Below, one piece after another: positions 1 through 46,451 of a stretch of DNA of 64,000 nt. This DNA comes from Alphaproteobacteria bacterium (GTDB lineage Bacteria; Pseudomonadota; Alphaproteobacteria; JANQMY01), in contig CBDDFL010000002.1 of the NCBI GenBank assembly GCA_965227095.1, positions 83,025-147,024 of the forward strand, written 5' to 3'. The position numbers and the translations under genes were made by a program. Below the pieces are notes generated by a model. The model was not told where the DNA came from and searched no databases. It was given only the letters and a program-made list of their open reading frames with translations. Position 1 is the stretch's first letter. Every line of letters starts with the position of its first letter.

Positions 1-354
1 CGTATTCTCCAGCAAGACACACCGGATGACTATGTGTTGGCGACGGGGGAAACCCATAGTGTGCGCGAGTTTGTAGAACTGGCCTTTGGCTGCATTGATC
101 AAGAGATTGAATGGAAAGGTCAAGGGGCCGACGAAAACGGCGTGTGTCCGAAGACGGGTAAGGTTTTGGTGCGGGTGGATCCGCGCTATTTCCGGCCAAC
201 GGAAGTGGATCTTCTGTTGGGAGATGCGTCAAAAGCGAAAGAGCGTCTTGGTTGGGAATCGTCCACCGCCTTTTGCGATCTTGTGCGCGAGATGGTGACA
301 GAGGATATCCGCTTGGCCGGCACTCATAATCAAGTTTGTCAGCCTAATGACTGA
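1..354 (+). CDS. gmd: GDP-mannose 4,6-dehydratase, C-terminal fragment (5' end lies outside the window)
   Basis: The frame is open from base 1. Its translation (…DYVLATGETHSVREFVELAFG…VDPRYFRPTEVDLLLGDASKAKERLGW…) matches the conserved Gmd C-terminus. It overlaps the downstream fcl by 8 bp. Confidence 0.85.
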   Translation, partial: RILQQDTPDDYVLATGETHSVREFVELAFGCIDQEIEWKGQGADENGVCPKTGKVLVRVDPRYFRPTEVDLLLGDASKAKERLGWESSTAFCDLVREMVTEDIRLAGTHNQVCQPND

Positions 355-1294
355 TATAGAAACCTATTCGTTGGATGCCAAGCGTGTCTGGGTGGCCGGG
401 CATAGAGGCATGGTCGGTTCTGCCCTGTGCCGACGGCTGCAAGACGAAAATTGCGAAATATTGACAGCGTCGAAATCCGAATTGGATCTGCGCGATCAAG
501 CGGCTGTGCGGCGTTGGATCTCTTCAAACAAGCCGGACCTTGTTTTCGTGGCGGCGGCGACCGTCGGCGGAATCGTTGCAAATGATTCCATGCCCGCCCA
601 GTTCCTCTATGACAATCTCATGATTGAGGCGAATGTCATTCATGCCGCCTATGAGGCAGGGGTGGAGAAACTGGTGTTTCTGGGCTCGTCCTGCATCTAT
701 CCGCGGCTCGCGGACCAGCCGATGACGGAATCGGCGCTGCTGACAGGGCCCCTTGAAGAAACCAATCAGTGGTATGCGGTGGCGAAGATTGCCGGCATTA
801 AGCTGTGCCAGGCCTATCGCAAGCAATATGGCTGCAACTATATCTCCGCGATGCCGACCAACCTCTACGGCACCGAAGATAATTTTGACTTGGAAACATC
901 CCATGTGGTGCCGGCCCTTCTGGCCAAGATGCACACCGGTAAAATTGACGGCGCCCCGGCAGTCACGGTTTGGGGGACCGGCAAGCCAAAGCGAGAGCTT
1001 TTATTTGTGGATGATTGTGCCGATGCCTTGGTCCACTTGGCAAAGACCTATGCCGGTGCGGAACATGTGAATGTGGGCACGGGGGAAGACCTGTCCATTG
1101 CTGAGATCGCTGAAACCGTGGCCAAGGTGGTGGGTTTTGAGGGGGCGTTGCAGTTCGACACCTCTCGACCGGACGGGACCCCACGAAAGCTGTTGGACAC
1201 AGCCAAACTGGCTGGGCTTGGCTGGAGGTATCGAACGTCTCTTCAGGACGGCCTTGCGGCCACTTATGAGTGGTATTTGTCGCAGCCGCGGTAG
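347..1294 (+). CDS. fcl: GDP-L-fucose synthase (GDP-4-keto-6-deoxymannose 3,5-epimerase/4-reductase)
   Basis: 315-aa ORF with an N-terminal Rossmann motif (VWVAGHRGMVGSA) and the YxxxK motif. It matches the Fcl/WcaG family and is translationally coupled to gmd. Confidence 0.9.
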   Translation: MTDIETYSLDAKRVWVAGHRGMVGSALCRRLQDENCEILTASKSELDLRDQAAVRRWISSNKPDLVFVAAATVGGIVANDSMPAQFLYDNLMIEANVIHAAYEAGVEKLVFLGSSCIYPRLADQPMTESALLTGPLEETNQWYAVAKIAGIKLCQAYRKQYGCNYISAMPTNLYGTEDNFDLETSHVVPALLAKMHTGKIDGAPAVTVWGTGKPKRELLFVDDCADALVHLAKTYAGAEHVNVGTGEDLSIAEIAETVAKVVGFEGALQFDTSRPDGTPRKLLDTAKLAGLGWRYRTSLQDGLAATYEWYLSQPR

Positions 1295-1654: not shown

Positions 1655-2824
1655 ATGAAGGTCTTGATACTGGGGGGCGACGGATTTTGTGGCTGGCCAA
1701 CGGCATTGCATCTGTCGAATCTGGATCACGATGTCAAAATCGTCGACAATTTGTCCCGGCGAAATATTGACAACGAACTTGAGGCCTACTCCCTCACACC
1801 CATTCGGCCAATGGGCGAGCGCTTACAAGCGTGGAAAGACGTTTCTGGGAAAGAGATCGATTTTATCCGCTTTGATGTGGCGGAGCATTATCATCGCTTG
1901 CTCACCCTGCTGAATGAATTTAAGCCCGACGCCATTGTCCATTTCGCAGAGCAGCGCGCGGCGCCGTATTCCATGAAATCGTCTTGGCACAAACGATATA
2001 CGGTTTCAAACAACCTGAATGCGACGAACAATCTGTTGGCCGCGGTGGTCGAATCCGGTGTGAACGCGCATATTGTTCACCTGGGGACCATGGGGGTTTA
2101 CGGCTATGGCACAGCCGGGATGAAAATTCCGGAAGGCTATCTGGAAGTGTCGGTGCGCACCTCCGAAGGGGATGAAATCAAGCAGGAAATTCTGTATCCG
2201 GCCAATCCCGGCAGCATTTATCACATGACCAAGACGCAGGATCAGTTGTTGTTTGCGTATTACAACAAAAACGATCATCTGAAAGTGACGGATCTGCATC
2301 AAGGTATTGTGTGGGGAACACAAACGCCGGAAACGGAAAAAGACGAACGCTTGATCAATCGGTTCGATTATGACGGCGATTACGGGACCGTTTTGAATCG
2401 CTTTCTAATGCAGGCCGCCATCGGTTACCCCCTCACCGTGCATGGTAAAGGCGGCCAGACACGGGCCTTCATCCATATCCGGGACACGGTGCGCTGCATT
2501 GAGTTGGCGATCGAAAATCCGCCGCAAAAAGGCGAGCGTGTGCAGGTCATGAACCAAATGACCGAAACCCACCGGGTGAATGATTTGGCCGATATGATCG
2601 CGCGCATGACCGGTGCGCAGGTGGAACATTTGCCCAATCCGCGCAACGAAGCGGATGAAAATGAGCTTCATGTGGAAAATGCGAAGTTGATCGGTTTGGG
2701 ACTTGATCCGATCACATTGGAAGATGGATTGATGACCGAGGTCAGCGACATCGCCAAGAAATATGCGGACCGCTGCGACCGTTCCAAGATTCCGTGTGTA
2801 TCGGTATGGAGTGATCGCAAGTAG
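1655..2824 (+). CDS. sqdB: UDP-sulfoquinovose synthase-like SDR (SQD1/SqdB family)
   Basis: 389 aa. It starts [21 protein letters not shown] and contains [24 protein letters not shown] and the YHMTKTQD (Y-H-x-x-K) block. These align along the full length with plant SQD1 and bacterial SqdB, including the catalytic Tyr-His…Lys. Confidence 0.75.
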
Positions 2825-2963
2825 CCCCAACGCCAGCCGATCAATTCGGGTTGCCCTCTGATGCCGATATCAAATGTGGATTGCAACGAGAATTGATCGT
2901 TCGTCTAAGGATCTTTCATCTGTGTGGTGATCGAACGGACGGTCCCGTCTTTTGGAGTCGTAT

Positions 2964-3893
2964 ATGAACAGGTTGGGTGTGACGGGCGGGCTCGGTTTTA
3001 TCGGCTCAAGCCTTGTGCCGAAATTGCGCCAGCAGCTCGGCGCGGAGATACGCATCCTGGACAATATGTCCAATATCAGCGGAAGCCTGGGGCCTGAAGA
3101 CGACATCGAAATTGTCGAAGGCGATGTCCGTGACCCGTCGGCCGTGACCAAGTTCGTTGCCGGATGCGATGCCATCGTCCACCTTGCAGCCCATACCCGC
3201 GTGATTGATTCAATCGAGGATCCCGCGCTTAATTTCGAAACGAACGTTATTGGGACGTTCAACGTGCTCGACAGCATGCGCCGCCAAGACGTGACGAGTT
3301 TTGTGAACGCCTCCACGGGCGGCGCCATTCTCGGGGAGGTGCCGCCGCCGATACATGAAGAAATCGCACCAAAACCGGCCGCCCCCTATGGCGCGTCGAA
3401 GCTGAGCGCGGAAGGCTATTGTTGGGCCTATGCGCAGTCCTACGGGCTGAACGCGGTGAGTTTACGGTTTTCCAACATCTATGGGCCGAACTCGCGGCGC
3501 AAAAGTTCGGTGGTTGCGGCGTTCATAAAGGCCATCCGGAAGACCGGTGCCGTGACAATTTACGGGGATGGCAGCCAAACCCGTGACTATCTGTTTGTAG
3601 ACGATTTAACGGACGGGATCGTGCAGGCGATCGAAGCGCGCGTATCGGGCGTCTATCAATTGGGGGCCGGGACCCCCACATCGGTGAACACCCTGACCGA
3701 TATGATCCGATCCGTAACGGGCACATCGTTTTCGGTGCAGTATGAGCCCGCGCGCGCCGGCGAAATTCTTCACACCCATTGCGACATCTCAAAAGCCCGA
3801 ACAGATATTGGGTATGATCCGAAGGTAAGTCTAGAAGAAGGCATCGCCCGAACCTGGGAATGGTTTGAAACGATGACAAGTAATGACGACTGA
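2964..3893 (+). CDS. NAD-dependent nucleotide-sugar epimerase/dehydratase (extended SDR)
   Basis: Contains GGLGFIGS, a Ser/Thr catalytic block and YGASK. An ATG at 2964 has a GGAG Shine-Dalgarno 6 nt upstream. The track ORF at 2952 starts with TTG. Confidence 0.7.
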   Translation: MNRLGVTGGLGFIGSSLVPKLRQQLGAEIRILDNMSNISGSLGPEDDIEIVEGDVRDPSAVTKFVAGCDAIVHLAAHTRVIDSIEDPALNFETNVIGTFNVLDSMRRQDVTSFVNASTGGAILGEVPPPIHEEIAPKPAAPYGASKLSAEGYCWAYAQSYGLNAVSLRFSNIYGPNSRRKSSVVAAFIKAIRKTGAVTIYGDGSQTRDYLFVDDLTDGIVQAIEARVSGVYQLGAGTPTSVNTLTDMIRSVTGTSFSVQYEPARAGEILHTHCDISKARTDIGYDPKVSLEEGIARTWEWFETMTSNDD

Positions 3894-5253
3894 CGATCAC
3901 CGCACCGCCCGCTTGCGCGTGCTTCATGTCTGTTATTCAGACGGCAATGGCGGCGCGGCCATCGGCGCGCGTCGGTCGCATAATGCCATGCTGTCTCAAG
4001 GCATCGACTCGGTACTTGCTGTGGTTAAAAAGACCACGAACGACTCGCGGGTGATCGAGCTCCCTGAAAATCCGGCCCGGCGTTTTGTTTCCCGTCAACT
4101 GACGCGATGTGTTGAATGGTTCCAGACATCGGACAACAAGGTATTTCGCACACTGAATATCATTCCGATGGGGGCAGCTGACGTTTTAAATACGATAGAG
4201 GCCGACATCATCCAACTGCATTGGGTTGCGGCGGACACCGTTTCCATCAGCGAATTGGCTAAGCTGAATAAGCCGATTGTTTGGAAACTGCCCGATATGT
4301 GGGCTTTCTCGGGTGCCGAACATTACAGCCAAATCGAAAGTGCCGACCGGTTTGCGGATGGCTACACCGCATCCAACAGACCCAAGGGGCAAGCAGGGCT
4401 GGATATCGACCGTTGGATTTGGACCTACAAAAAAAACGTGTGGCGCGATGTGAACTTTAACATTGTCGGGCCCAGTAAATGGATTGCGGATTGCGCGCGC
4501 CGCAGCATCCTCTTTAAAAACGCCCGCATTCGCCATATTCCGAATCCGCTGGACTTGTCCCTTTACGCGCCACAGCCGAAATCTGACGCCCGTGCGGCTT
4601 TTGGCCTGCCGCAGGACCGAACGTTGGTCATGTTTGGGGCGCTTCATGCGACCACCGATCCGCGCAAGGGGTTTCAGCACCTTCAAGCTGCTCTGGATCA
4701 CTTGCCGCAACATTTAGACCCCAACACCACGTCCATTGTGGTGATGGGGGCAGACGGTCCTAGAGGGCAAAAGACGGGCCCCTATGACACGCACTATCTG
4801 GGTGTCCTGCGAGAGGAAAAAGAAATTGTCGCGGCCTACTGCACTGCGGATGTTTTTGTTTTGCCGTGTGAAATGGACAACTTGCCGAATGTGATCAAAG
4901 AAGCCACGTGCTGTGGGGTGCCGTGTACCGGGTTTGATGTTGGCGGCATGCCGGACATGATTGACCATCAAGAAACGGGGTATTTAGCGAAACCGTATGA
5001 TCCGCAAGACCTGGCGCGCGGCATCGGGTGGGTCGCGCAACACGCAACCGCCGATTTTCGCAAAGAAGTGCGGCGTCGCGCGGAACTCAAGCATGCAGAG
5101 CATGTTGCCGTTAATCGGTACGTAGAATTTTATGACGAAATTCTCGGCCGGCCGTCAGCCCCGGATCAGAAATCCGAACGCTCAACCGAGGACGCAAAAA
5201 CGTCGGCGCAGGAACCGCAGAATGAGAATAACATCATACGGGAGGTCTTGTGA
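3883..5253 (+). CDS. glycosyltransferase, GT-B fold (GT4-like)
   Basis: 456 aa with a C-terminal E-x7-E-like GT4 signature region (…VLPCEMDNLPNVIKEATCCGVPCTGFDVGGMPDMI…). It overlaps the upstream epimerase by 11 bp. Confidence 0.7.
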   Translation: MTTDDHRTARLRVLHVCYSDGNGGAAIGARRSHNAMLSQGIDSVLAVVKKTTNDSRVIELPENPARRFVSRQLTRCVEWFQTSDNKVFRTLNIIPMGAADVLNTIEADIIQLHWVAADTVSISELAKLNKPIVWKLPDMWAFSGAEHYSQIESADRFADGYTASNRPKGQAGLDIDRWIWTYKKNVWRDVNFNIVGPSKWIADCARRSILFKNARIRHIPNPLDLSLYAPQPKSDARAAFGLPQDRTLVMFGALHATTDPRKGFQHLQAALDHLPQHLDPNTTSIVVMGADGPRGQKTGPYDTHYLGVLREEKEIVAAYCTADVFVLPCEMDNLPNVIKEATCCGVPCTGFDVGGMPDMIDHQETGYLAKPYDPQDLARGIGWVAQHATADFRKEVRRRAELKHAEHVAVNRYVEFYDEILGRPSAPDQKSERSTEDAKTSAQEPQNENNIIREVL

Positions 5254-5306: not shown

Positions 5307-7091
5307 ATGACGTCCTGCGCGCCCATTGCATTGTTTGTCTATAATCGTCCGGACCATGCGTCTCGCACGCTGGATGCACTTCGGTCGAATTCGCTTGCTC
5401 CTGATACAGATCTTTTTATTTTTAGCGACGGTGCAAAAAATGCGGCGGACGAACCTCACGTTGACGCGGTTCGCGATATCCTGAAAGACGTCCGTGGATT
5501 TAAGAGTGTGTCCGTCGACCGGAGCGGGCAAAACAAGGGCTTGGCTCAGTCGATTATCGGCGGCGTCTCAAACATCGTGGACCGGTTTGGCCGCGTGATC
5601 GTCATCGAGGATGATCTGGTAACCCATCCCTCAACGCTCAGCTATTTCAATCAGGCACTGGATCATTTCGAGAATCATCCAAATGTGTTTTCGATCAGCG
5701 CCTATAACCACCCAGCCGATATCATGCCGATTCCTCAGTCGTATGAGTATGACGTTTATGCCAATCCACGAATGCAATGCTGGGGTTGGGCGACGTGGAA
5801 GGATCGCTGGCAGAAGGCCGATTTTTCAATGCCGGATTTTGAAGAATTCGACCGATCTGAAACCTTGACACGAGCCTATGCCCATTGGATCGGACAAGAC
5901 AGTCTCAACACATTGCGCGCGCATATGCGGGGAGAACTAGACGTCTGGGCGTGCCGCTGGGTCTATACCCATTTCAAACATCAGGGTGTGTGCATATGTC
6001 CGACAAAATCATTGGTCGATAATATCGGGTTGGATGGCTCCGGCGAAAATTGCAGCTCTGTGACCCACCTGAAGAACGAGCTGACTGCTGACAAGACGGC
6101 GTCCTGGCGTTTTCCGCCGGTTGCGTTTATCGAGCCGGCCATTTTTACGGCGTTTATGGACGTCACAGATCCGGGAACACGAAGAGTGCCGGCGAACGGC
6201 CTGACTGTTCATAATCAGGCGGCTTCCGCAGGGCCAGGTTTGGCGGAGCGGTTCGCTTATTGGAGCGCACATCCAGGGAAGTTCTTAAGAAGGTTGCCGG
6301 AAAAAGGTGCGGAATATTTGGCGGGCTTATCCGGTCGATCGACGCATTTTTCAAAAGCGTCACTGCAGCGTGCGCATCAGGAGCTATCGGCGCCACCGAC
6401 GGTCCCGCTTGTTCGTCTTGGGACGGAGTATGGCGGCTGGCATGTCCCGCAAACCGGGTTGGGCCCTTCTGATGTGGTTGTGTCGGCTGGCGCGGGTGAG
6501 GACATCTCTTTTGATATGGAGTTGGCGGAAAGGTTCGGGTGTCGGATCGTGCTCCTAGATCCAACGCCACGCGCGTTCGATCATTTTTCAGAGACATCCG
6601 CATCAATACGCAGCGGCCGTGCAGCGGCCATAAATGGGTCTTCAACAGAGTTTTACCGGGCAAATCCGAAAAATCTTGACCATCTTACGTTTCAACCCTG
6701 GGGTCTTTGGCGCGAAACAACGCGTCTTCAGTTTTTTGAGCCGGAGAATCCAACTCATGTAAGCCATTCGATCGGTAACCTTCATCAGACAGAGAAAGGA
6801 TTTGAAGCCGAATGCGTGTCGCTGAGCGACCTTATGGCGCGCGAGGATGTGTCGAAAGTGTCTGTGCTGAAAATGGATATTGAGGGCGCGGAATTCGACG
6901 TGCTGGATCAGATGCTTACGACCAAAATTCGCCCCACTTTCTTACTGGTTGAATTCCATCCGGGTAAGGATGCTCAGGAAAGGACCTACCGTGGGCGGAC
7001 CCTTCAAACCCTTAGGCGCCTTTATGACGAAGGGTACCGATTGGTCCAGTACAGCGGGTGGGATTATGTGCTTGAGCGTCAAGTGATCTAG
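5307..7091 (+). CDS. bifunctional glycosyltransferase (GT-A-like N-domain) / FkbM-family methyltransferase (C-domain)
   Basis: 594 aa. The N-terminal ~250 aa contain ALFVYNRP…IVIEDDL, a GT-A DXD-type signature. The C-terminal ~220 aa contain VSAGAGEDISFD…LLDPTP…VLKMDIEGAEFDVL, which are FkbM (Methyltransf_21) signatures. Confidence 0.65.
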   Translation: MTSCAPIALFVYNRPDHASRTLDALRSNSLAPDTDLFIFSDGAKNAADEPHVDAVRDILKDVRGFKSVSVDRSGQNKGLAQSIIGGVSNIVDRFGRVIVIEDDLVTHPSTLSYFNQALDHFENHPNVFSISAYNHPADIMPIPQSYEYDVYANPRMQCWGWATWKDRWQKADFSMPDFEEFDRSETLTRAYAHWIGQDSLNTLRAHMRGELDVWACRWVYTHFKHQGVCICPTKSLVDNIGLDGSGENCSSVTHLKNELTADKTASWRFPPVAFIEPAIFTAFMDVTDPGTRRVPANGLTVHNQAASAGPGLAERFAYWSAHPGKFLRRLPEKGAEYLAGLSGRSTHFSKASLQRAHQELSAPPTVPLVRLGTEYGGWHVPQTGLGPSDVVVSAGAGEDISFDMELAERFGCRIVLLDPTPRAFDHFSETSASIRSGRAAAINGSSTEFYRANPKNLDHLTFQPWGLWRETTRLQFFEPENPTHVSHSIGNLHQTEKGFEAECVSLSDLMAREDVSKVSVLKMDIEGAEFDVLDQMLTTKIRPTFLLVEFHPGKDAQERTYRGRTLQTLRRLYDEGYRLVQYSGWDYVLERQVI

Positions 7092-7378: not shown

Positions 7379-8425
7379 ATGTCTGCTTCTAATCGATCAG
7401 CATTGATATTTGGCGTCACGGGCCAAGACGGATCCATTCTTGCGCACCAATTGGTGGAGCAAGGATGGAAGGTCTATGGTGGGTATCGCCGTGGTGGCCA
7501 CAATAAACTCTGGCGCCTTGAGGAATTGGGCATCCTGGACAAGATTGAGCTGATCAACATTAATCTGTTGGAGCCCTTTCTGGTCTTGAATATCGTTTCT
7601 GATATTACGCCAGAGCATGTCTATCAGCTGGCGGGCGACAGCTATGTTGTTGACTCGTTCGAGCAACCACGGTCCGTGCTGGAAAACAATTGCATTAGTA
7701 CGCTGAACGTCCTGGAAGCCATTCGGATCGCCGCCCCTGAGGCGCGGCTTTTCTTTCCCTCCAGTTCAGAAGTGTTCGGAAGTGCAACGGCTGGAAAAAT
7801 GATGGACGAAGGCGGTCCCTTTTCGCCGCTTAACCCCTATGGTCTGTCGCGGCTTGCCGCTCAAAAACTCATTGATATCTACCGCCGCCATCACGGCCTG
7901 CACGCATGTTGCGGTATTATGTTCAATCATGAAGGCCCTCTTCGCGCTCGCAGTTTTGTCACCCGAAAGATAACCTACAATCTCGCTCGGTTGAGGTCCG
8001 AAGGGGGCAGGCCGGTCACATTGGGAAATTTAAACACGCGCCGCGATTGGGGCTCTGCCGAAGACTATGTGAGCATCATGCCCACCCTTTTGGACCTAGA
8101 AGTGCCTGATGATTTTGTATTTGCCACAGGCACCACAACCACACTGAGAAGAATGATTGAGGTCGCCGCCGATTATGCAGGCTTTCAACCGGAATTCGAT
8201 GGGGAAGGGCTCAACGAAGTGTGCGTTGATCGCAAGTCCGGGCAAATTCTCGTGGATGTGGGGCTCGAATTTTTCCGGAAGTCCGACACGCCGCCGCTGG
8301 TTGGCAACCCGGCCAATTTGAAGAATTCAACGGGGTTCAAAGGATCCCGAAAGATCGAGCAAACAATCGTGGAAATGGTTCAAGCGGATATCGATCGGCG
8401 TGAAAAGGGAAATATCAACGTCTAG
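7379..8425 (+). CDS. GDP-mannose 4,6-dehydratase paralog, divergent (catalytic YxxxK replaced by YxxxR)
   Basis: Contains IFGVTGQDGSIL, PSSSEVFG and MFNHEGPLRARSFVTRKIT, aligning with Gmd. The Tyr-x3-Lys block reads NPYGLSRL (Arg instead of Lys). This is a second gmd-like gene in the locus. Confidence 0.7.
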   Translation: MSASNRSALIFGVTGQDGSILAHQLVEQGWKVYGGYRRGGHNKLWRLEELGILDKIELININLLEPFLVLNIVSDITPEHVYQLAGDSYVVDSFEQPRSVLENNCISTLNVLEAIRIAAPEARLFFPSSSEVFGSATAGKMMDEGGPFSPLNPYGLSRLAAQKLIDIYRRHHGLHACCGIMFNHEGPLRARSFVTRKITYNLARLRSEGGRPVTLGNLNTRRDWGSAEDYVSIMPTLLDLEVPDDFVFATGTTTTLRRMIEVAADYAGFQPEFDGEGLNEVCVDRKSGQILVDVGLEFFRKSDTPPLVGNPANLKNSTGFKGSRKIEQTIVEMVQADIDRREKGNINV

Positions 8426-8568: not shown

Positions 8569-9549
8569 TTGCCATCAAACCTATTGATAACAGGCGGGGC
8601 CGGTTATATCGGCAGTCACGTTGTGTTTGGGGCATTGGACGCCGGGAATAAAGTCACCGTGGTCGATGACCTGTCCACCGGTCACCGGGCGTGCCTTCCA
8701 TCAGACATCCATTTTGTGGAAGGGGATGTGGGTGACAAAGCGTTTATCGACGAGGTGCTGCGCAAGGTGGAGCCGACAACAGTTCTTCATTTCGCGGGCT
8801 CAATTATTGTACCGGAATCGATTGCGAACCCGATCAAATATTATTCCAACAATACGTCCGCGTCCCTGACACTGATTGAAGCCTGCGTTCAATCCGGCAG
8901 TGTCAGCGAGTTCATTTTCTCATCCACCGCTGCGATTTACGGAATGCCGGCGGGCGGCGTAGCAACCGAAGAAACCGAAGCCAATCCGATCAACCCCTAT
9001 GGCCGGTCCAAATGGATGACCGAACAAATATTGTCCGATACATATAAGGCATACGGACTAAATTATGCAGTGCTTCGATATTTCAACGTTGCCGGTGCCG
9101 ATCCTCAGAAACGGACGGGTCAATTCTCGCCGGATGCAACTCATCTGATTAAGAAAGCGTGCCAAGCGGCATTGGGCACCAATCCGAATATGCAAATTTT
9201 CGGTACGGATTACGATACTCCCGATGGCACCTGTGTGCGCGACTTCATCCACGTTTCTGATTTGGCAGACGCGCATTTGAAGGTGATCGACTTACTGCGG
9301 CGGTCGGGTCACCCCCACACTCTCAATTGTGGGAACGGTGCCGGTTATTCGGTGCGTCAGGTAATCGCCGCAGTTGAGGCGGAAGTCGGCCATACAATCC
9401 CCGTTATTGAAGCCGAGCGCCGTGCGGGTGATCCGCCGAAATTGATCGCCGATGCCAGCAAGCTGCAGTCACTCACGCGCTGGCGCCCGAAATTTACGGA
9501 CCTCGCATCGATCGTGCGATCAGCGTTAGAGTGGGAAGAACGACTTTAG
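8569..9549 (+). CDS. galE: UDP-glucose 4-epimerase
   Basis: Contains LLITGGAGYIGSHVV, SSTAAIYG and NPYGRSKWMTE (YxxxK), typical of GalE. The start codon is TTG. Confidence 0.8.
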   Translation: MPSNLLITGGAGYIGSHVVFGALDAGNKVTVVDDLSTGHRACLPSDIHFVEGDVGDKAFIDEVLRKVEPTTVLHFAGSIIVPESIANPIKYYSNNTSASLTLIEACVQSGSVSEFIFSSTAAIYGMPAGGVATEETEANPINPYGRSKWMTEQILSDTYKAYGLNYAVLRYFNVAGADPQKRTGQFSPDATHLIKKACQAALGTNPNMQIFGTDYDTPDGTCVRDFIHVSDLADAHLKVIDLLRRSGHPHTLNCGNGAGYSVRQVIAAVEAEVGHTIPVIEAERRAGDPPKLIADASKLQSLTRWRPKFTDLASIVRSALEWEERL

Positions 9550-9611: not shown

Positions 9612-10292
9612 TCAGTGCCAATCCAACCGAACTCTGCTGGACAGCCCCGCGTCTTGGATTAGCTTGCGCATCGCTTCTGTTGCGTCGCGCAGCAGCGGGT
9701 TCTTGCGTTCGTGCGTTTCGATGACCGCGTTTTCAATATGGTCAAACGATCCCTGCGCAACCAGATGGGGGATGACGTCAACTTCCGCACCCTCAATGTC
9801 CATTTTCATTAAATGAATAGATTGTGGGAGACTATTTATGAAGCGCGCTAAATCAACTGTCTGTACGGAGACAGTTTCGTTTTGCAGTACGTTTGTCTTT
9901 TCCGCTTTGAGAGACGAACCTGTGGAAAAGGCTACCTCATTCTCTTTGTGTAATTCATGCAGATACAATGACGCTTCGCCGTCGCAATTGGAAACGGCAG
10001 CGTTATGAAGCGTGATGTTTGGCCAATTTCCCAGATTGCGCGACAACATTTCGAAAGCCACCGGATTTGGCTCGAACGCGTGAACGATTGCGCCACGCAA
10101 CCCCAATATGAAGCTCATTCGGCCAACATTGGCGCCCGCATCAATGACAAGGTTCCCCTTTACGGCCGAGTTGAGCATTGCTGCCAGTTCTGGCTCGACG
10201 GACGCCGGCAGAAAGCGCCCCGCGCGATATTCCTTGAACCACTTCCAACTCGTTTTCGATAAATGCCGCGGAAAGGCAAGGCGTCCAATCAT
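9612..10292 (-). CDS. FkbM-family SAM-dependent methyltransferase
   Basis: Contains VIDAGANVGRMSFILG…LMKMDIEGAEVDVIPHL, which are FkbM domain motifs. Confidence 0.75.
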   Translation of the reverse strand: MIGRLAFPRHLSKTSWKWFKEYRAGRFLPASVEPELAAMLNSAVKGNLVIDAGANVGRMSFILGLRGAIVHAFEPNPVAFEMLSRNLGNWPNITLHNAAVSNCDGEASLYLHELHKENEVAFSTGSSLKAEKTNVLQNETVSVQTVDLARFINSLPQSIHLMKMDIEGAEVDVIPHLVAQGSFDHIENAVIETHERKNPLLRDATEAMRKLIQDAGLSSRVRLDWH

Positions 10293-10304
10293 ACCAAGTT
10301 CATC

Positions 10305-11264
10305 CTACGATTCACGGTGGCCGCCAGCGCCGACCGCAGTTTCCCAAGCACTGCCAAAACGGGCGATCTGTATACCGATCACTTCAAAAAAGTAGTTCCT
10401 AAAGGTCGGGTATGTCTGCCGATCTCTCCAAACAAGCCCTTTCAGGGCGGACAATCCGATTAATCCCGAAAAACTCGCGCATCGCCCAATCGCGGCACCG
10501 CGGCTGCGCAATGTGACGACCTTATCTCTCGCAAAAATTTGCGCTGAAACGCGCCCATTGGCAAATCTTAGCCGGGCGATGTGCAAGAGGTCCAATTTTT
10601 CCGGTCGGACAAGGTGACGTAAGAAAACACCGGGATCGAAATAGACGAGGGCTGCGGGGTCTTTTTTCCGCAGCCTTATCTGAAAGTCAGTCTCCTCGCC
10701 ATAGCTGATTTTGTTGCCTGACATTCCAAGTTCCGGATTGAAACCGCCCATCTCTTTGATGCGTTTGCGCTCGACAAAGAAATTTCCGCCGCTGATAAAC
10801 TCAGTCGGTCCCAAGGCTCCCGCGGCAGATCTGCGTTTGTTGGAGCTTCCATATTTATCTTTGAACCAGGCGGGTTTTTGGCCCTGGTACCAGGGACCAT
10901 AAGGACCTCCAAAGACGGCTGGTTGTTGGTTTTCTATCACTGCAAGGGCTGCGTCGAGCCATTTGTCGTCAACGATGCATTCATCGTCAATGTAACCCAC
11001 ATATGTCCCGACCGCAGTTGCCGCGCCGCGATTGCGTGCATGGGACAAACCTTGCGCCGGTTCAAACACGTAGCGTGCGTTTGGTTTGTCGGCAATGAGG
11101 TTCTGTATGGTGTGGGCGGTGGTGTCGGTGGAGTTATTGTCAACCACGACAGCCTCGACTTGGTCGTGTTTCTCTATCGCGTCGAGCACGGAAAGGAGGG
11201 CGGTGGCGGCAAGGTCCGCCCGATTATAGGTGCAGATGACAATAGAAAGAATAATGTCGTTCAT
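10305..11264 (-). CDS. glycosyltransferase family 2
   Basis: Contains LSIVICTYNRADLAATALLSV…VVVDNNSTD…YIDDE, a GT2 N-terminal signature. Confidence 0.8.
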   Translation of the reverse strand: MNDIILSIVICTYNRADLAATALLSVLDAIEKHDQVEAVVVDNNSTDTTAHTIQNLIADKPNARYVFEPAQGLSHARNRGAATAVGTYVGYIDDECIVDDKWLDAALAVIENQQPAVFGGPYGPWYQGQKPAWFKDKYGSSNKRRSAAGALGPTEFISGGNFFVERKRIKEMGGFNPELGMSGNKISYGEETDFQIRLRKKDPAALVYFDPGVFLRHLVRPEKLDLLHIARLRFANGRVSAQIFARDKVVTLRSRGAAIGRCASFSGLIGLSALKGLVWRDRQTYPTFRNYFFEVIGIQIARFGSAWETAVGAGGHRES

Positions 11265-11294
11265 TCTGATGGGAAAACTGTGGGGGCGGTTTGG

Positions 11295-12275
11295 TTATGA
11301 CGTGGCTTTAAGTTGATGCGAAAGGGCGCGCATTGCCATGTTCTGCGACACCCGCCCGATGGGGCGATTGCCCAGACGTCGCCAAAAATTCCGCCAAACG
11401 GTTTTGTTTTTCTGGGGTGTCGATGTGGTGTGGAGAAATTTTTCCCAGATGCGCAGTAGATTTCGCGCGGCAACAAAGTCATCCCGCCCGAAAAGCGACC
11501 GGATGCCATGTTGAAACACGCCGCGCAAGTGAAGGAGGTCGTCCTCGGACATGTTTAAGGTTGGATCCAGTCGTGCGATGTTTCTGGCCGAGACTTTATT
11601 GGCAAATTTCTGCTGTTGGGGGCGCAAACGCCCACTGATGCTGTGGGTATTTATGCGGTAACGGACAAGCGTCTCGGGAAGATTGGATACGGTCCCCTTT
11701 TCTATGAGACGCGACCACAACTCATAATCCTGGGAGTATTGGAAATCTTCGTCGTAGAGTACCGGAGTGTCCCCGAGGCCCTCTCTCCTGAACATCATCG
11801 AACTATGGCAGAACGCATTGTGAAACAGGAGTTGCCAGGCGATTTCATGTGAGGCGGTTGGAACCTTGATGCTTCGGACCACCTGCCCGTCTTCATTGAT
11901 GGTTTTGTAAAACGTGCCCAAGGCAAGCAAGCCGGCGTCTTCTTCAAATGCTTTGATTTGCTGCGCGAACCTGTTGGGTTCCGAGATGTCGTCGGCGTCT
12001 TGACGGGCGACCAACGCTCCGCGGGATTGATGGATTGCAACATTCAACGACTTTGTGAGGCCGATATTGGTGTCGTTCGGGATGATCCGTACCCGTTGAT
12101 CCTGCGCGGCATACTGCGCTAAGCGTTCAGAACTGCCGTCAGTCGAACCGTCATCGACAATAAGAAACTCAAAATCATCAAAGGTTTGCTGCAGAATGCT
12201 CTCAACCGCTTCGTCTAAATGACGCCGGGTGTTGTGAACCGACATAATGACAGAGATGGACGGGGCGCTGTTCAT
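11295..12275 (-). CDS. glycosyltransferase family 2
   Basis: Contains ISVIMSVHNTRRHLDEAVESILQQTFDDFEFLIVDDGSTDGS…ARQDADDIS, the GT2 DxD/DDGS signatures. Confidence 0.8.
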   Translation of the reverse strand: MNSAPSISVIMSVHNTRRHLDEAVESILQQTFDDFEFLIVDDGSTDGSSERLAQYAAQDQRVRIIPNDTNIGLTKSLNVAIHQSRGALVARQDADDISEPNRFAQQIKAFEEDAGLLALGTFYKTINEDGQVVRSIKVPTASHEIAWQLLFHNAFCHSSMMFRREGLGDTPVLYDEDFQYSQDYELWSRLIEKGTVSNLPETLVRYRINTHSISGRLRPQQQKFANKVSARNIARLDPTLNMSEDDLLHLRGVFQHGIRSLFGRDDFVAARNLLRIWEKFLHTTSTPQKNKTVWRNFWRRLGNRPIGRVSQNMAMRALSHQLKATS

Positions 12276-12305
12276 AAGGTCAAACGAATTGCCTCTCCTA
12301 AGCCA

Positions 12306-13139
12306 TTATAAACGCGTTGCAATCGCGTACGCCCGGTGTTGGGACGCCGTAATGTGGTCGACGCGATAGTGCCCTTTCGCTTCCACAGCGTTGATCGCGG
12401 AAACGACACCTGGAAATTCCTGCGGTGTCACATCGTCGAAAACAATCATGTCACCTGTTTGTTGGCGAGAGGCGACATAATTGTATTCCTCCAACACGTC
12501 CTTCTCTTCATGGGTTGCGTCCAGAAAAGCAAAGTTGACGCGGCTCAGCCCAATCGTTTGTAAAAGATCACGGACATTGCCTTCCACAAAACAAATACGC
12601 CGCAGCAGAGGCTCCCAAGGGGCTAAAATTTCAGATCGTGTTTTCTCGCGCTCCAAATCATCAATACAATTCCAGATCATTGGGATGTGGTGGGGCAGAC
12701 GGTCAAGCGTAACGATGGACCCCTCTATGCCCGCGTCCTCAAGCGCCCTGGACATGACAACCGAGGAAAACCCGCGCGCTGTGCCGGTTTCAAAAATGGT
12801 GACAGGGTAGTCGGGATCGTTGTCCAAATATTTCCGTAAGGTGGCGTAAAGGACCCGCCCATGTCCGTAGTTAAGTGGATTCTTCTTGACGACACATTGG
12901 GTATGGAGGGCGAGCTCATTCATCCAGCCAAGGTCGATGGCGAAACCGGTATTTTGTTCGACCGACTCAACCTCCGGATAGGATTGATCGCAGGCTTGTT
13001 GATGCAACGCCAAATAGGTTTCTCGATCGGCATGGGGGGCGGTGCCCAACGGGGCGGCGGCGCGCATTTGGGCTGACGGAGCCGACGGCACAGGGGCAAT
13101 CAACTGGCGGAGTTTTGATGTAAGTCCGGTTCCGAACAT
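12306..13139 (-). CDS. SAM-dependent sugar O-methyltransferase, TylF/MycF (macrocin-O-MT)-like
   Basis: Contains IFETGTARGFSS (an E-x-G-x-x-R-G-x-S motif) and LDATHEE, resembling the TylF/CmcI family. The family assignment is tentative. Confidence 0.55.
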   Translation of the reverse strand: MFGTGLTSKLRQLIAPVPSAPSAQMRAAAPLGTAPHADRETYLALHQQACDQSYPEVESVEQNTGFAIDLGWMNELALHTQCVVKKNPLNYGHGRVLYATLRKYLDNDPDYPVTIFETGTARGFSSVVMSRALEDAGIEGSIVTLDRLPHHIPMIWNCIDDLEREKTRSEILAPWEPLLRRICFVEGNVRDLLQTIGLSRVNFAFLDATHEEKDVLEEYNYVASRQQTGDMIVFDDVTPQEFPGVVSAINAVEAKGHYRVDHITASQHRAYAIATRL

Positions 13140-13165
13140 AGGATTAAAGTGCGTGTTCCTGAGAT

Positions 13166-14314
13166 CTAGGTGCTGACGGTCTGAGGTGTAAGGGCGGCCT
13201 TTTCATAAACCGCAAGCTCCATTTCCACAACACGGTCGAGCGATACAGTGGATTCGATTTCTCTGCGCGCGGCATTGCCCAGCCGCCGTGCGCAATCAGG
13301 GTCATCGAGAAGCTGCTTGATTGCCGCCCGTAAAGAATGACTGTTTGTATCTGCAAGCAAGCCCGTTCGGTTGTGGTCAATCACATTGTTGATGCCGGGA
13401 GAATTGCCGCCGACCACGCTGATGCCGCAAGACATGGCTTCCAACAGGGTTTTTGGATGGCCCTCATAATTGGATGGCAAGACGAAAACATCCGCGTTGT
13501 TGATGTAGTTCGGGATCTCATGGTTAGGGACGGCCCCATGGAAGCGTACGGCAATGTTTTTCTCGCGCGCCAAAGCGTCCATCTGCGCTTGTAAGGGACC
13601 TTTGCCGATAACATCTAGTTCTGCATCAAGTCCCGCCAACGCTTCAATCAAGAGCAAAGGGTTTTTTTGCGGACTGAGGCGACCGATGAAGATCACTCGC
13701 CGCTGGCTTGGCCTGCGGGCAGGGGGGGCAAATAAGTCCGTGTCCACATAATTTGGAACGACATTGATTTTGTCCGAGGCAACCCCATAGGACAGAACAG
13801 TATCGCGCATGGCGCCGGTCGAAACGATTGATTGTGCGGCGGCGCCAAAGGCATTTCGTTCCAGAGCTTCCGCGGCGCGAAACTGGGGTGATGATCCACC
13901 GTGAGCCCGTGCTTCAAAGTCAGAAAGGAGATAACCGCAGCGAGCGATAAAAACACTATTGTCAATCTGTGCCAAGCGCTGGGCCTCGTCGGCGCCTTTA
14001 ATTTGATTGGACTTAAATATCGCAAGGCTTCCCCGGCAACGCTGCCGCGTCAGGCCTGGTAACAAACGCCGGTAAACCCAATTTGGGATGCCAAATCTGT
14101 TGACGATCAAACCGATGCCGGGGAATTGGTTTATTACGTCCAGATCTTTGTGGGTGCCGTGAGACACAATGGTCACACCCGCAAGGTTGGGCTTTAGCCG
14201 GCTGTAGAGGGCCATTTCCCGTGAGAGCATGCCGATGTCTTGCCATGCTTTCAGGGACATGCCGGTTGTTAGAACAACAAACAAATGAATTGGGTGTGTT
14301 CGGTCGGTCGTCAT
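13166..14314 (-). CDS. glycosyltransferase family 4 (GT-B)
   Basis: Contains …VFVLPSNYEGHPKTLLEAMSCGISVVG…, the GT4 E-x7-E region. Confidence 0.75.
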   Translation of the reverse strand: MTTDRTHPIHLFVVLTTGMSLKAWQDIGMLSREMALYSRLKPNLAGVTIVSHGTHKDLDVINQFPGIGLIVNRFGIPNWVYRRLLPGLTRQRCRGSLAIFKSNQIKGADEAQRLAQIDNSVFIARCGYLLSDFEARAHGGSSPQFRAAEALERNAFGAAAQSIVSTGAMRDTVLSYGVASDKINVVPNYVDTDLFAPPARRPSQRRVIFIGRLSPQKNPLLLIEALAGLDAELDVIGKGPLQAQMDALAREKNIAVRFHGAVPNHEIPNYINNADVFVLPSNYEGHPKTLLEAMSCGISVVGGNSPGINNVIDHNRTGLLADTNSHSLRAAIKQLLDDPDCARRLGNAARREIESTVSLDRVVEMELAVYEKAALTPQTVST

Positions 14315-14339
14315 CTCTGGTCAAAGATCGGTATGCAGA

Positions 14340-15053: not shown

Positions 15054-15375
15054 TTCGCTGAGACACGCTTCCGTGTAAATTCGGGTTGGTGATGGCGCAT
15101 CTTTAACCCGTTGCGGAAGATCACAGGATGTCCCGATGACCTGTTTTCGTGATGCTTTTGCGGACTGCCTGACGCCGAATATCCGAGAGAAGCCGGCGCC
15201 ACATAAGTGCGCCGCTCATCAGGTGTCAGCGAGGGGTTGTCCCCACACACTTCTCCGAACCGGTTCACGGTCATGGAGTCTGCCTGATCAATGGCAGGTG
15301 GTGTTTTGAGTTGATCTGAGGCGTCACGTTCTTCTGAGTGACCAAACGGCGACACGGCATCATGGCAACTTTCCC

Positions 15376-15387
15376 CACGCTACCGCC
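15376..15387 (-). promoter_or_regulatory. ops (operon polarity suppressor) element, exact 12-mer GGCGGTAGCGTG on the minus (coding) strand
   Basis: The plus strand reads CACGCTACCGCC at 15376-15387, whose reverse complement is GGCGGTAGCGTG. It sits in the 390-bp leader between the RfaH-like gene (stop 15444) and the downstream minus-strand MT/GT operon (first start 15053). Confidence 0.6.
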
Positions 15388-19800: not shown

Positions 19801-19890
<90 letters not shown>

Positions 19891-46439: not shown

Positions 46440-46451
46440 GGGGGCAATCAT

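Follow-up and report, generated by a model that had tools for sequence, protein, structure and literature searches.

Described sulfoquinovose synthases and related enzymes

In the sulfur-cycle literature, sulfoquinovose is treated as the product of phototroph sulfolipids and of a few archaeal N-glycans, and a recent review of sulfoquinovose cycling mentions no bacterial glycan source. No description of the sugar in a bacterial O-antigen, capsule or exopolysaccharide, or in anammox bacteria, was found in the open-access literature, which agrees with the original prediction that bacterial sulfosugar glycans are little described. In the sqdB-sqdD-sqdC sulfolipid operon of Sinorhizobium meliloti and Rhodobacter sphaeroides, sqdB is followed by sqdD (annotated as a glycosyl transferase) and sqdC and serves a membrane lipid, whereas the sqdB-like gene studied here lies among surface-glycan genes. 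The plastid enzyme SQD1 of Arabidopsis thaliana (PDB 1qrr, 1i24) also belongs to a lipid pathway. Agl3 of Sulfolobus acidocaldarius, a proven synthase about 40% identical to SQD1, feeds a surface glycan and not a lipid, and the same idea is proposed here; Agl3 is archaeal and its sugar is beta-linked in a dolichol-linked N-glycan, whereas the present gene is bacterial. To our knowledge, no partner epimerase-like SDR accompanies Agl3.

Two other systems bear on the second gene of the locus. The C4 epimer of sulfoquinovose, 6-C-sulfofucose, occurs in the N-glycan of Thermoplasma acidophilum and in Fucaceae glycolipids, and its biosynthetic route was stated to be unknown in 2025 (PMC12421959). 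[quoted passage not shown]

A UDP-sulfoquinovose synthase homologue of the SqdB-type clade

The window analysed, a continuous stretch of 64 kb, possessed on its plus strand an ORF (1655..2824) of 389 aa with an ATG start codon. In a solved-structure search, residues 2-383 aligned with residues 3-381 of the SQD1 chain 1qrr (E=9e-99), and identity to plant SQD1 was 44% over 388 positions. The best structures beyond SQD1 were unrelated SDRs with E~1e-12 and partial coverage only, so that the SQD1 match is not due to chance. The product was also 64.5% identical to that of an S. meliloti gene that immediately precedes an annotated glycosyl transferase, near tolQR/ruvAB; we take this gene to be the sulfolipid sqdB, and the transferase presumably is sqdD. 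The end-to-end homology with SQD1/SqdB put forward by the original prediction was thus recovered, together with the two motifs it had named, GGDGFCGWP (residues 7-15) and YHMTK (residues 189-193).

Further motif positions comprised H96, R101, the stretch G-T145-M146-G-V148-Y149-G, S187 and Y189-H190-M-T192-K193. They include the [ST]MG...Yx3K fingerprint that sets UDP-sulfoquinovose synthase (EC 3.13.1.1) apart from [ST]DE dehydratases and GalE (PMC8987622 Table 1), in the form of G-T145-M146-G and Y189-H-M-T-K193. All the residues found essential in Agl3 by mutagenesis (H95, R101, M145, Y182 and K186, whose alanine mutants are dead; PMC4388408) had counterparts in H96, R101, M146, Y189 and K193, with S187, T192 and Y149 likewise retained, and the SQD1 residues T145/Y182/K186, H183 and R101 were conserved as well. 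The exception concerned the Glu147/Tyr148 pair of Agl3 (GTMGEYG), proposed to aid loss of the C6 hydroxyl, in which E147A keeps 12% activity (PMC4388408): the tyrosine was kept as Tyr149, but the glutamate was replaced by Val148. SQD1, from the other deep branch of the family, also reads GTMGEYG, whereas S. meliloti SqdB, which is of about the same length as the present protein, shares both GTMGVYG and YHMTK with it. As valine at this position was common to S. meliloti SqdB and to the whole SqdB-type clade, it is read as a clade trait and not as a loss of function.

On the NCBIfam model NF041015 the protein scored 359.7 bits, under the equivalog cut-off of 575; SQD1 itself, a proven member, reached only 480 bits, and cyanobacterial, Oceanicaulis and Rhodothalassium homologues 340-364 bits, so that the cut-off is uninformative as a membership test and was dropped. 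In the family tree (neighbour-joining only, with SDR outgroups and with the Agl3 sequence left out), the ORF was positioned inside the SQD1 family, as expected from the original prediction, as the sister of S. meliloti SqdB, while SQD1 fell in another branch. Judged from its sequence, the protein is a member of the bacterial SqdB-type clade and does not belong to the SQD1/Agl3 side of the family. This clade contains the putative sulfolipid sqdB of S. meliloti, the SqdB of the sulfolipid operon being of the same clade as the ORF, and membership alone therefore cannot separate a lipid from a glycan role.

By analogy with SQD1 and Agl3, the enzyme would oxidise C4 of UDP-glucose with its bound NAD+ and eliminate water across C5-C6, after which addition of sulfite at C6 and re-reduction of C4 would yield UDP-sulfoquinovose.

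A conserved GalE-like partner SDR

The next gene (2952..3893, plus strand; an alternative start is possible at the ATG at 2964) encodes a GalE-like extended SDR that was recognised from solved structures, co-occurrence and a sequence signature as a conserved partner of SQD1-family genes. It possessed the GxxGxxG motif (GVTGGLGFIG) and the S/T-Y-K triad (AST with S121/T122, and Y146xxxK150), had no dehydratase D-E pair, and found its nearest structures among 4-epimerases. The best solved matches were short UDP-glucose 4-epimerases (4zrm, E=1.3e-52; 2p5u, E=2.2e-45), with Pal (6bwl) in fifth place (E=5.6e-44), and the score on the GalE model was 171 bits, under the cut-off of 262. An identity as SqdC orthologue was rejected, as the protein shared only 27-31% identity with the SqdC reconstructed for S. 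meliloti, and this SqdC had no match in the window.

The subfamily to which this SDR belongs is found paired with SQD1-family genes from either deep clade, frequently within polysaccharide clusters, and carries the signature S-x-[HRN]-K, with an invariant lysine and a second conserved lysine in the sugar-binding loop (S181...K184...K193 in the window protein). The two lysines suit an anionic substrate. The SDR matched UGAepi (6zl6) with E=7.9e-35, and its invariant lysine apparently lies in the same loop as Arg185, although the signatures differ, UGAepi having GRPDM, within which we place Arg185.

The conservation of the partner SDR suggests that the glycan may ultimately receive a derivative of sulfoquinovose, and the SDR may convert UDP-sulfoquinovose to UDP-sulfofucose. 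In its full form, this reading makes the SDR a UDP-sulfoquinovose 4-epimerase and the gene pair the missing route to UDP-sulfofucose (6-deoxy-6-sulfo-D-galactose), which the GT4 encoded next to it would install in the O-antigens or exopolysaccharides of several bacterial groups (Alpha-, Gamma- and Zetaproteobacteria, Actinomycetota and the anammox planctomycete Brocadia). The pairing of the SDR with SQD1-family genes and the invariant K184/S181 signature point to it, and we put it forward tentatively, as a proposal with the odds somewhat against it. The expected product would be the sulfofucose of Thermoplasma and Fucaceae, organisms for which no link to the SDR subfamily is known.

Gene content of the surrounding cluster

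The gene following the SDR overlaps its stop codon by 11 nt and encodes a retaining GT4 glycosyltransferase (3883..5253, plus strand; PF13692/PF00534, N-terminal Glyco_transf_4), the strongest candidate for transfer of the sulfosugar. It is followed by a bifunctional protein of 594 aa (5307..7091, plus strand) with an N-terminal GT13-like GT-A domain of the GNT-I family (PF03071, 26.1 bits against a cut-off of 25.4) and a C-terminal FkbM methyltransferase domain (PF05050/TIGR01444).

Upstream of the sqdB-like gene, on the same strand, lie the C-terminal part of a GDP-mannose 4,6-dehydratase gene (gmd; 34..354, PF16363 positions 247-332 of 332) and a GDP-L-fucose synthase gene (fcl; 347..1294, NF047922 518.6 bits, above the cut-off of 500). 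The gmd gene starts upstream of the window and is complete, with 357 aa, on another contig of the same strain (L081, 7627-8700), where the 100%-identical protein P0002 gives the upstream context of the cluster. Farther downstream on the plus strand were a gmd-like paralogue (7379..8425; TIGR01472 242 bits, below the cut-off of 415), possibly a second GDP-6-deoxyhexose branch, of which an 84% identical copy occurs in the related locus L001, and a canonical UDP-glucose 4-epimerase GalE (8569..9549; TIGR01179 410.8 bits, above the cut-off of 262.3).

A glycan operon of seven ORFs occupies the minus strand (9612..15355), with genes encoding an FkbM methyltransferase (9612..10292), two GT2 (10305..11264 and 11295..12275), a Methyltransf_24 protein (12306..13139), a GT4 (13166..14314), a methyltransferase (14340..15053) and a protein of 101 aa to which no function was assigned (15050..15355). 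The right edge of the cluster is formed by a further GT2 on the plus strand (16900..17925; PF00535). Overall, the cluster combines nucleotide-sugar genes (gmd, fcl, GalE, the gmd paralogue and several SDRs), transferases (three GT2 and one more upstream, two GT4 and the GT13-like domain), modifying enzymes (four methyltransferase genes and the FkbM domain of the 594-aa protein) and regulation, as in a surface-polysaccharide cluster. Domain and family profile matches thus corroborated the glycan neighbourhood (gmd/fcl, epimerases, GT2/GT4, methyltransferases) that had been predicted around the sqdB-like gene.

The predicted separation from sulfolipid genes was upheld too: tblastn with S. meliloti SqdD, the reconstructed SqdC and an SqdX-like GT4 from a cyanobacterium gave no convincing match in the 64 kb. 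Among the SQDG-forming transferases, SqdD belongs to GT8 and SqdX/SQD2 to GT4. An SqdX-like identity was rejected for the GT4s of the window, which reached only 27-36% identity over partial lengths with the cyanobacterial GT4 adjacent to sqdB. Neither an initiating phosphoglycosyl transferase nor Wzx/Wzy or Wzm/Wzt was found in the window cluster or on the same-strain contig L081, and the window held no cysH. LPS core and Lpt genes, as well as PhoX, are present in the same window.

RfaH-like regulator and ops element

Next to the minus-strand operon, an RfaH-like NusG paralogue was found on the same strand (15444..15944; PF02357), with scores below the curated RfaH cut-offs (TIGR01955, 96.8 bits for 144.5; NF006534, 81.4 bits for 124). 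The leader between this gene and the operon contained an exact ops element, GGCGGTAGCGTG (15376..15387, minus strand), the sole match of the 12-mer in the 64 kb, where 0.05 would be expected by chance. RfaH/ops control is typical of long LPS/capsule operons. The adjoining gene (15941..16591, minus strand) encodes a MarR-type regulator related to the EPS-associated MarR family (TIGR04176 52.4 bits, cut-off 88; weak MarR matches). An ops element upstream of the plus-strand operon is not claimed, the matches there being imperfect only (GGCGGTAT at 1498; GGCGGTAGAGCG in L081), and promoter and terminator scans around the sqdB-like gene performed no better than shuffles.

Gene neighbourhoods of related sqdB genes

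The neighbourhoods of relatives were surveyed by tblastn of reference proteins against the locus DNA, which replaced an ORF caller that missed 20 of 81 sqdB genes in high-GC loci. Across bacterial classes, sqdB was found to travel with the GalE-like SDR, the GT4 and the GT13-like/FkbM protein. Homologues of the GT4 (49-61% identity) follow the SDR in L003/L004/L005/L007 and in L089-L094, and the GT13-like/FkbM protein is co-conserved in L003, L004, L007 and the L090-L094 group. Several of these relatives resemble the ABC-transporter O-antigen systems of the E. coli O9a/O8 type, for which no sulfosugar is reported: L085, L086 and L018 share with them Wzm, Wzt with a Wzt_C domain, methyltransferases and a WecA-like initiator, whereas the window cluster has no exporter. 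The gene order was Wzm-Wzt(Wzt_C)-MT-x-SDR-GT4-AsnB-FkbM protein-sqdB ... GT2-GT2-AsnB-GT4-SDR-WecA-like-PglF-like in L085 and sqdB-Wzm-Wzt-MT/GT2-SDR-GT4-AsnB-FkbM protein in L086; Wzm and Wzt (Wzt_C) lie beside sqdB in L018, and in Allomesorhizobium sqdB is followed by Wzm/Wzt.

The left flank was conserved and the right flank variable among the loci of the window, L087 and L088, with sqdB kept in all three. The closest relative (L001/L087, 93% identical) had no SDR-GT4 module, and L087 carried the membrane proteins LPG_synthase_TM and DUF6044. One metagenomic lineage (L090-L092) possessed the SDR-GT4-FkbM module without sqdB over about 20 kb (combined from two contigs and covering roughly 10 kb to the left and right of the SDR). 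In most loci of the SqdB-type clade, no transferase adjoined sqdB. The sqdB genes of the window, L001-L004 and L018 formed a clade with a bootstrap of 81/100; only this smaller clade is claimed, as the subclade of all SDR/Wzt-context sqdB genes (group D) reached 13/100.

Concerning sulfite supply, an APS/PAPS reductase gene lay within 1.5 kb of the sqdB homologue in 26 of 84 loci, including a position directly downstream of sqdB on a Pelagovum plasmid, and 13 actinobacterial loci with cysH adjoining sqdB also held the partner SDR. This proximity ties the clade to sulfite chemistry.

Product and destination of the sulfosugar pathway

The best explanation, to which we assign a probability of roughly 0.6, is that ORF 1655..2824 encodes a working SqdB-type UDP-sulfoquinovose synthase that serves an RfaH/ops-controlled surface-glycan locus and not a sulfolipid pathway; from homology, catalytic-residue conservation, gene context and cross-genome co-conservation we infer the enzyme activity, the final sugar, the acceptor and the export. 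The locus is rich in (methylated) deoxyhexose functions, and the sqdB-like gene and the next three genes would form a horizontally mobile "sulfosugar module": the GalE-like SDR would most likely re-tailor UDP-sulfoquinovose, the translationally coupled GT4 would install the sulfosugar, and the GT13-like/FkbM protein would add and methylate a further residue. In related genomes, the module belongs to ABC-transporter (Wzm/Wzt) dependent O-polysaccharide clusters. The original prediction of a sulfosugar in a surface polysaccharide is considerably strengthened by the Wzm/Wzt and WecA-type neighbours, the locus architecture, the ops element and the APS/PAPS reductase genes, although it is unprovable from sequence.

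An ordinary sulfolipid sqdB, lying among glycan genes only incidentally and supplying an SQDG synthase whose gene is located in another part of the genome, would account for the 64.5% identity to the presumed sulfolipid gene of S. meliloti and for the company of Hyphomonadaceae, purple bacteria and cyanobacteria in the clade, which we take to be known SQDG makers. The many clade loci with no transferase beside sqdB, the window cluster without an exporter and PhoX, a hint at adaptation to phosphate scarcity, also fit such a gene. It would not be expected, however, to keep its position while the glycan genes of the locus vary, to be conserved together with SDR-GT4-GT13/FkbM in different classes, and in L085/L086 also with Wzm/Wzt and a WecA-like gene, or to fall with other glycan-context sqdB genes in a supported subclade (81/100); with no sqdD or sqdX found in the 64 kb, we regard this origin as unlikely. 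The same Wzm/Wzt and WecA-like genes beside the module in relatives, together with the RfaH/ops control, weigh against a product other than a polysaccharide, namely a non-SQDG sulfosugar glycolipid or a protein-linked glycan built by the cluster transferases and methyltransferases on a non-polyprenol acceptor. Such a product, which we hold to be quite improbable, would suit the lack of a flippase, polymerase, ABC exporter and initiating phosphoglycosyl transferase in the window cluster and L081, and the LPG_synthase_TM and DUF6044 proteins that L087 has instead, but exporter genes are often unlinked.

Sulfur might also play no part in the pathway. Agl3 releases UDP-glucose-5,6-ene without sulfite (PMC8987622), and the SQD1-like enzyme could thus be a UDP-glucose 5,6-dehydratase whose 5,6-ene the SDR turns into a 4-keto-6-deoxyhexose, like Pen/Pal, to supply a deoxyhexose for the glycan. 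The rank of Pal among the SDR matches, the valine in place of Agl3 Glu147, the abundance of deoxyhexose functions in the cluster and the window without cysH are compatible with this. However, S. meliloti SqdB, taken as a sulfolipid enzyme, has the same valine as Val148, cysH adjoins sqdB in 26 of 84 relatives (among them the 13 actinobacterial loci in which the SDR is also present), and the lysines of the SDR sugar loop suit an anionic substrate, which makes a sulfur-free pair very improbable.

The preferred reading, a synthase serving a surface glycan, suggests that a sulfosugar is added to the surface glycans of some bacteria, a situation for which no description was found in the open-access literature. 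If heterotrophs do put a C6-sulfonated hexose in O-antigens or exopolysaccharides, this would represent a second, unaccounted sulfosugar pool, a new permanently anionic surface decoration beyond removal by sulfatases, and a new substrate class for sulfoquinovosidases and sulfoglycolytic pathways. The partner SDR offers a concrete candidate for sulfofucose biosynthesis, the step stated to be unknown in 2025 (PMC12421959); if the sulfofucose proposal holds, bacterial surface glycans would be an unrecognised environmental source of sulfofucose/sulfoquinovose, which would explain the dedicated sulfofucose catabolic pathway kept by soil Paracoccus. The module or the gene pair is carried by cultured bacteria, including Allomesorhizobium camelthorni, Thiohalocapsa halophila, Rhodanobacter ginsengisoli, Nocardioides spp. 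and Pelagovum pacificum, which make the sulfosugar question directly testable.

Identity and phylogenetic position of the UDP-sulfoquinovose synthase homologue

The plus-strand gene at 1655-2824 (sqdB; ATG start) encoded a 389-aa protein whose residues 2-383 aligned end to end with residues 3-381 of Arabidopsis SQD1, the archetypal proven UDP-sulfoquinovose synthase (1qrr; E = 9e-99, 44% identity over 388 positions). The motifs GGDGFCGWP (residues 7-15) and YHMTK (residues 189-193) were both present, in agreement with the original prediction of an SQD1/SqdB homologue. The next solved structures were generic SDRs, matching over partial length (E of about 1e-12), and Pfam matches were limited to the broad Epimerase and GDP_Man_Dehyd families. 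Against the NCBIfam equivalog NF041015 the protein scored 359.7 bits (cut-off 575), a failure that is uninformative because the crystal-structure sequence of SQD1 itself reached only 480 bits, the threshold thus being narrower than the function; cyanobacterial, Oceanicaulis, Rhodothalassium and Allomesorhizobium homologues scored 340-364 bits.

The fingerprint [ST]MG...Yx3K, diagnostic for SQD1 and the archaeal synthase Agl3 of Sulfolobus acidocaldarius and replaced by [ST]DE in 4,6-dehydratases (2022 review, PMC8987622), was also found. All residues whose alanine mutants are inactive in Agl3 (His95, Arg101, Met145, Tyr182 and Lys186; PMC4388408) were retained (H96, R101, M146, Y189 and K193), as were the counterparts of Ser180, Thr185 and Tyr148, at which Agl3 mutants are impaired (PMC4388408). 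The sole departure among the mutagenized positions was Val148 (GTMGVYG) for Glu147 of Agl3 and SQD1 (GTMGEYG), a residue proposed to assist departure of the C6 hydroxyl and whose alanine mutant in Agl3 has 12% activity left (PMC4388408). Valine was also present in the other SqdB-type sequences read directly (L083 and L171), which include the Sinorhizobium meliloti protein, so that it may be read as a trait of the SqdB-type clade. As SQD1-type partners of the SDR described below keep the glutamate and the SqdB-type sequences read directly have valine, the two clades may differ in the dehydration step. The window enzyme is predicted to make UDP-sulfoquinovose, with a probability of about 85%.

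A database search with the window protein gave 8000 matches, including a tight clade (74-80% identity) spanning Alpha- and Gammaproteobacteria, Actinomycetota, some cyanobacteria, Fibrobacteria and Polyangiaceae. A neighbour-joining tree was built from 91 sequences, among them members of the whole family reduced at 50% identity (534 representatives at E<=1e-30) and, as outgroups, three window SDRs. In this tree the protein fell within the SQD1 family, as proposed; S. meliloti SqdB was the sister of its tight clade, and SQD1 lay on another branch. The S. meliloti homologue, located on a 3.7-Mb replicon by a plasmid-collection search, was 64.5% identical to the window protein and lay directly upstream of a "glycosyl transferase" gene and a frameshifted SDR, adjoined by tolQR and ruvAB; we take this to be the sqdB-sqdD-sqdC sulfolipid locus. 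A published listing for S. meliloti names the UDP-sulfoquinovose synthase SqdB, the epimerase SqdC and the glycosyltransferase SqdD. Agl3 has been reported to be about 40% identical to SQD1, so proven enzymes diverge among themselves as much as the window protein does from SQD1.

More distant family members were also encountered. Large Agrobacterium/Rhizobium plasmids (H13-H19, e.g. NZ_CP032928.1 57441-58595; protein cluster P0139) carried a divergent SQD1-family paralogue with 44% identity to the window protein. In a Robiginitomaculum sp. MAG, the SQD1-family protein (P0217; PHR91535.1) shared only 36% identity with it, and other Robiginitomaculum MAGs (L011, L024, L038, L039) had SqdB-type genes at 75-77% identity. 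Two paralogues may therefore exist in this genus, perhaps with separate lipid and glycan roles.

Organization of the glycan cluster

On a contig of the same strain (L081; protein 100% identical), the cluster started with a divergent GT2, followed by gmd and fcl, with chemoreceptor and P450 genes beyond. The window itself opened with the 3' end of gmd and fcl (above its equivalog cut-off), separated from sqdB by 361 nt. Downstream, all on the plus strand, were a GalE-like SDR (2952-3893), a GT4 with an 11-nt overlap with the SDR stop codon (3883-5253), a 594-aa protein combining a GT13-like N-terminus (PF03071; 26.1 bits, cut-off 25.4) with a C-terminal FkbM methyltransferase (5307-7091), a gmd paralogue and a canonical GalE. 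The minus strand encoded, in order, a MarR-like regulator, an RfaH-like protein (15444-15944), an 88-nt leader, a 101-aa ORF (15050-15355), a methyltransferase, a GT4, a Methyltransf_24 protein, two GT2 and an FkbM methyltransferase, and a further GT2 lay beyond on the plus strand. The leader between the RfaH-like gene and this operon contained an ops element, GGCGGTAGCGTG (15376-15387, minus strand; the sole match in the 64-kb window, where 0.05 would be expected), which we take to be the exact 12-nt E. coli/enterobacterial consensus, although the organism is an alphaproteobacterium, and which points to RfaH/ops control. The 101-aa ORF had no family match; it is the first gene after ops and shares 4 nt with the methyltransferase gene that follows. 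The neighbourhood was therefore as originally described, with gmd/fcl, epimerases, GT2/GT4 transferases and methyltransferases, and tblastn found no SqdD-, SqdC- or SqdX-like genes in the 64-kb window.

An LPS core region at 33394-36451 (minus strand) comprised genes for a GT9 heptosyltransferase and a GT4 (both within 33.4-35.5 kb) and an SDR-like gene, and kdsD-lptC-lptA-lptB-rpoN occupied 44567-49570 (plus strand), indicating that the organism makes LPS. All of these genes lie within 15-30 kb of the glycan cluster, so this chromosomal region concentrates several LPS functions. The G+C content of the cluster (1-18000; 0.52-0.55) was slightly below that of most of the window (0.55-0.59), and a tRNA-Ser(GGA) (19801-19890) lay about 1.9 kb past its last glycosyltransferase, both compatible with horizontal acquisition of the locus.

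Related loci and linkage to exporters

Three related alphaproteobacterial genomes (window/L081, L088, L087; sqdB 91-100% identical) shared a left flank of a thiolase-like gene, P450, GT2, gmd, fcl and sqdB. The right flank was SDR-GT4-GT13/FkbM-gmd paralogue-GalE in the window, GT2-SDR-GT4-AsnB-like-FkbM protein-acyltransferase in L088, and a different GT4, a 398-aa protein, a gmd paralogue, a GT2/FkbM fusion, GT4, LPG_synthase_TM and DUF6044 in L087. Glycan loci that determine serotype usually behave in this way, keeping a flank constant while the interior varies.

Elsewhere sqdB was linked to ABC exporter genes. One locus (L086; sqdB 85%) read sqdB-Wzm-Wzt(Wzt_C)-MT/GT2-SDR-GT4-AsnB-FkbM protein-MT on a single strand, and a gammaproteobacterial MAG (L085; sqdB 80%) read Wzm-Wzt(Wzt_C)-MT-x-SDR-GT4-AsnB-FkbM protein-sqdB, then GT2-GT2-AsnB-GT4-SDR-WecA-like (PF00953)-PglF-like. 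The module was the constant part beside Wzm/Wzt(Wzt_C) in both, the other transferases varying; speculatively, it may thus build a conserved terminal or adaptor structure. In Allomesorhizobium camelthorni, sqdB was followed by Wzm and Wzt(Wzt_C). On the Pelagovum pacificum plasmid p_SM1903_1 (L084; NZ_CP065916.1, 41 kb; sqdB 74.8% identical), sqdB-cysH was surrounded by genes for GT2 and DUF4422 proteins, ABC permeases, sugar transporters and a 1170-aa HAD-family protein, which looks like a plasmid-borne sulfosugar glycan cassette. In Nocardioidaceae, cysH-sqdB lay a few kb from an SDR-GT4 operon; of two loci inspected, L067 also had a polysaccharide pyruvyl transferase. In Thiohalocapsa the order was sqdB-SDR-GT4-GT2. 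In a bootstrapped neighbour-joining tree, sqdB of the window, L001-L004 and Allomesorhizobium formed a clade (81/100); a wider clade of all glycan-context sqdB genes was unsupported (13/100).

The partner SDR

The best solved relatives of the SDR downstream of sqdB were short UDP-glucose 4-epimerases (4zrm, E = 1.3e-52; 2p5u); Pal, from the Pen/Pal pair, came fifth, and the UDP-glucuronate 4-epimerase 6zl6 matched at E = 7.9e-35. It possessed the S/T-Y-K triad, lacked the dehydratase D-E pair and scored below the GalE cut-off, a bona fide GalE being encoded 4.7 kb away. Homologues (38-79% identity) occurred in the analysed flanks of 23 of the 84 sqdB loci, and the SDR-GT4 pair was often translationally coupled.

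As the 84-locus sample was chosen by sqdB, a second search was run from the SDR side, in metagenomes. The six closest matches (62-65%) had the same GT4 next and, in most, the FkbM protein, with Wzt upstream in two. At 39-44% identity, the SDR immediately followed an SQD1-family gene in every contig that allowed the position to be judged (13 contigs, several lineages); below about 38%, such a gene was almost never directly upstream. The main counter-observation to the pairing came from one lineage (L090-L092; Ga0310823_100198 and relatives), in which the module SDR-GT4-AsnB?-GT13/FkbM, with Wzt upstream in L090 and L092, had no SQD1-family gene over about 20 kb (about 10 kb on each side of the SDR, pieced together from L091 and L092). 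There, either sqdB is unlinked or the module can work without it.

The SQD1-family genes upstream of the 39-44% SDRs belonged to the other deep clade (49-62% to SQD1, only 37-44% to SqdB), and in 'bacterium BMS3Abin06' the SDR was paired with an SqdB-type gene (71% to the window), so the pairing is conserved across both clades. The contexts were again polysaccharide clusters: Wzy-Wzx-...-GT4-SQD1-like-SDR-GT4-GT4-Wzy in BMS3Abin06, and Wza-Wzc-SDR-SQD1-like-SDR-Wzx-polysaccharide deacetylase-two sulfotransferases in the anammox bacterium Candidatus Brocadia (L169/L170; CP091279.1, about 1.876-1.889 Mb). The latter is an EPS-type cluster holding an SQD1-type gene and the partner SDR, and its polymer may combine sulfonation with sulfation.

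When 38 SDRs that were linked or in the module were aligned with 55 unlinked homologues, a subfamily signature emerged in the loop after the conserved N-x-Y-G-P, S-x-[HRN]-K-x-S-V-V-A-x-F-x-K, in which Lys184 (100% vs 4%), Ser181 in place of the usual Gln (87% vs 0%) and Lys193 (89% vs 4%) separated linked or module from unlinked SDRs. Presumably the same loop, in the GRPDM motif, carries Arg185 of UDP-glucuronate 4-epimerase. This arginine holds the carboxylate of the galacto-configured product (PMC12338863), and by analogy a basic residue here would suit a substrate whose C6 group is anionic. The simplest interpretation, a UDP-sulfoquinovose 4-epimerase yielding UDP-sulfofucose, is tentative and less likely than not. 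The only known sources of sulfofucose are glycolipids of Fucaceae and the N-glycan of Thermoplasma acidophilum, and according to a 2025 study of how soil Paracoccus degrades it, no biosynthetic pathway is known (PMC12421959).

Proposed pathway and alternatives

Sulfite from assimilatory APS/PAPS reduction would be combined with UDP-glucose to give UDP-sulfoquinovose, whose stereochemistry the SDR would adjust. The retaining GT4 would then transfer the sulfosugar onto a growing lipid-linked glycan, the GT13-like/FkbM protein would add and methylate a neighbouring residue, and the remaining GT2/GT4 and methyltransferases would build a chain with fucose and 6-deoxyhexose.

Independent support for sulfite chemistry came from APS/PAPS reductase homologues within 1.5 kb of sqdB in 26 of the 84 loci, and from an annotated phosphoadenylyl-sulfate reductase directly downstream of it on the Pelagovum plasmid. 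A Pen/Pal-like 5,6-ene route that involves no sulfur is very improbable, cysH being linked in loci that also carry the SDR. That the gene is an ordinary sulfolipid sqdB in an incidental location is unlikely; sqdB was kept in all three related genomes despite the variable right flank. A glycolipid or protein-glycan product, instead of a polysaccharide, is favoured by the lack of flippase, polymerase, ABC exporter and initiating phosphoglycosyl transferase genes in the window cluster, and is nevertheless considered quite improbable.

The enzyme is a new member of a known family, and what appears undescribed is the arrangement, repeated in O-antigen/EPS clusters of several bacterial groups, in which a sulfoquinovose synthase is accompanied by its own epimerase-like SDR and a GT4. 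Among open-access papers, none was found to report sulfoquinovose in a bacterial polysaccharide, or a gene for a UDP-sulfoquinovose synthase in that setting, although an older carbohydrate-chemistry report could exist outside them. A 2026 review of sulfoquinovose cycling covers the SqdB-SqdX lipid route only.

Other features of the window

A ZMP/ZTP riboswitch (RF01750, 62.2 bits; 56961-57047, minus strand) slightly overlapped the called start of a serine hydroxymethyltransferase ORF (55659-56984) at its 5' end, an ordinary arrangement. Unrelated to the glycan cluster, the window also encoded a 190-aa protein consisting almost entirely of EF-hand calcium-binding motifs (29636-30208, plus strand) and a PhoX alkaline phosphatase (53651-55555, minus strand).
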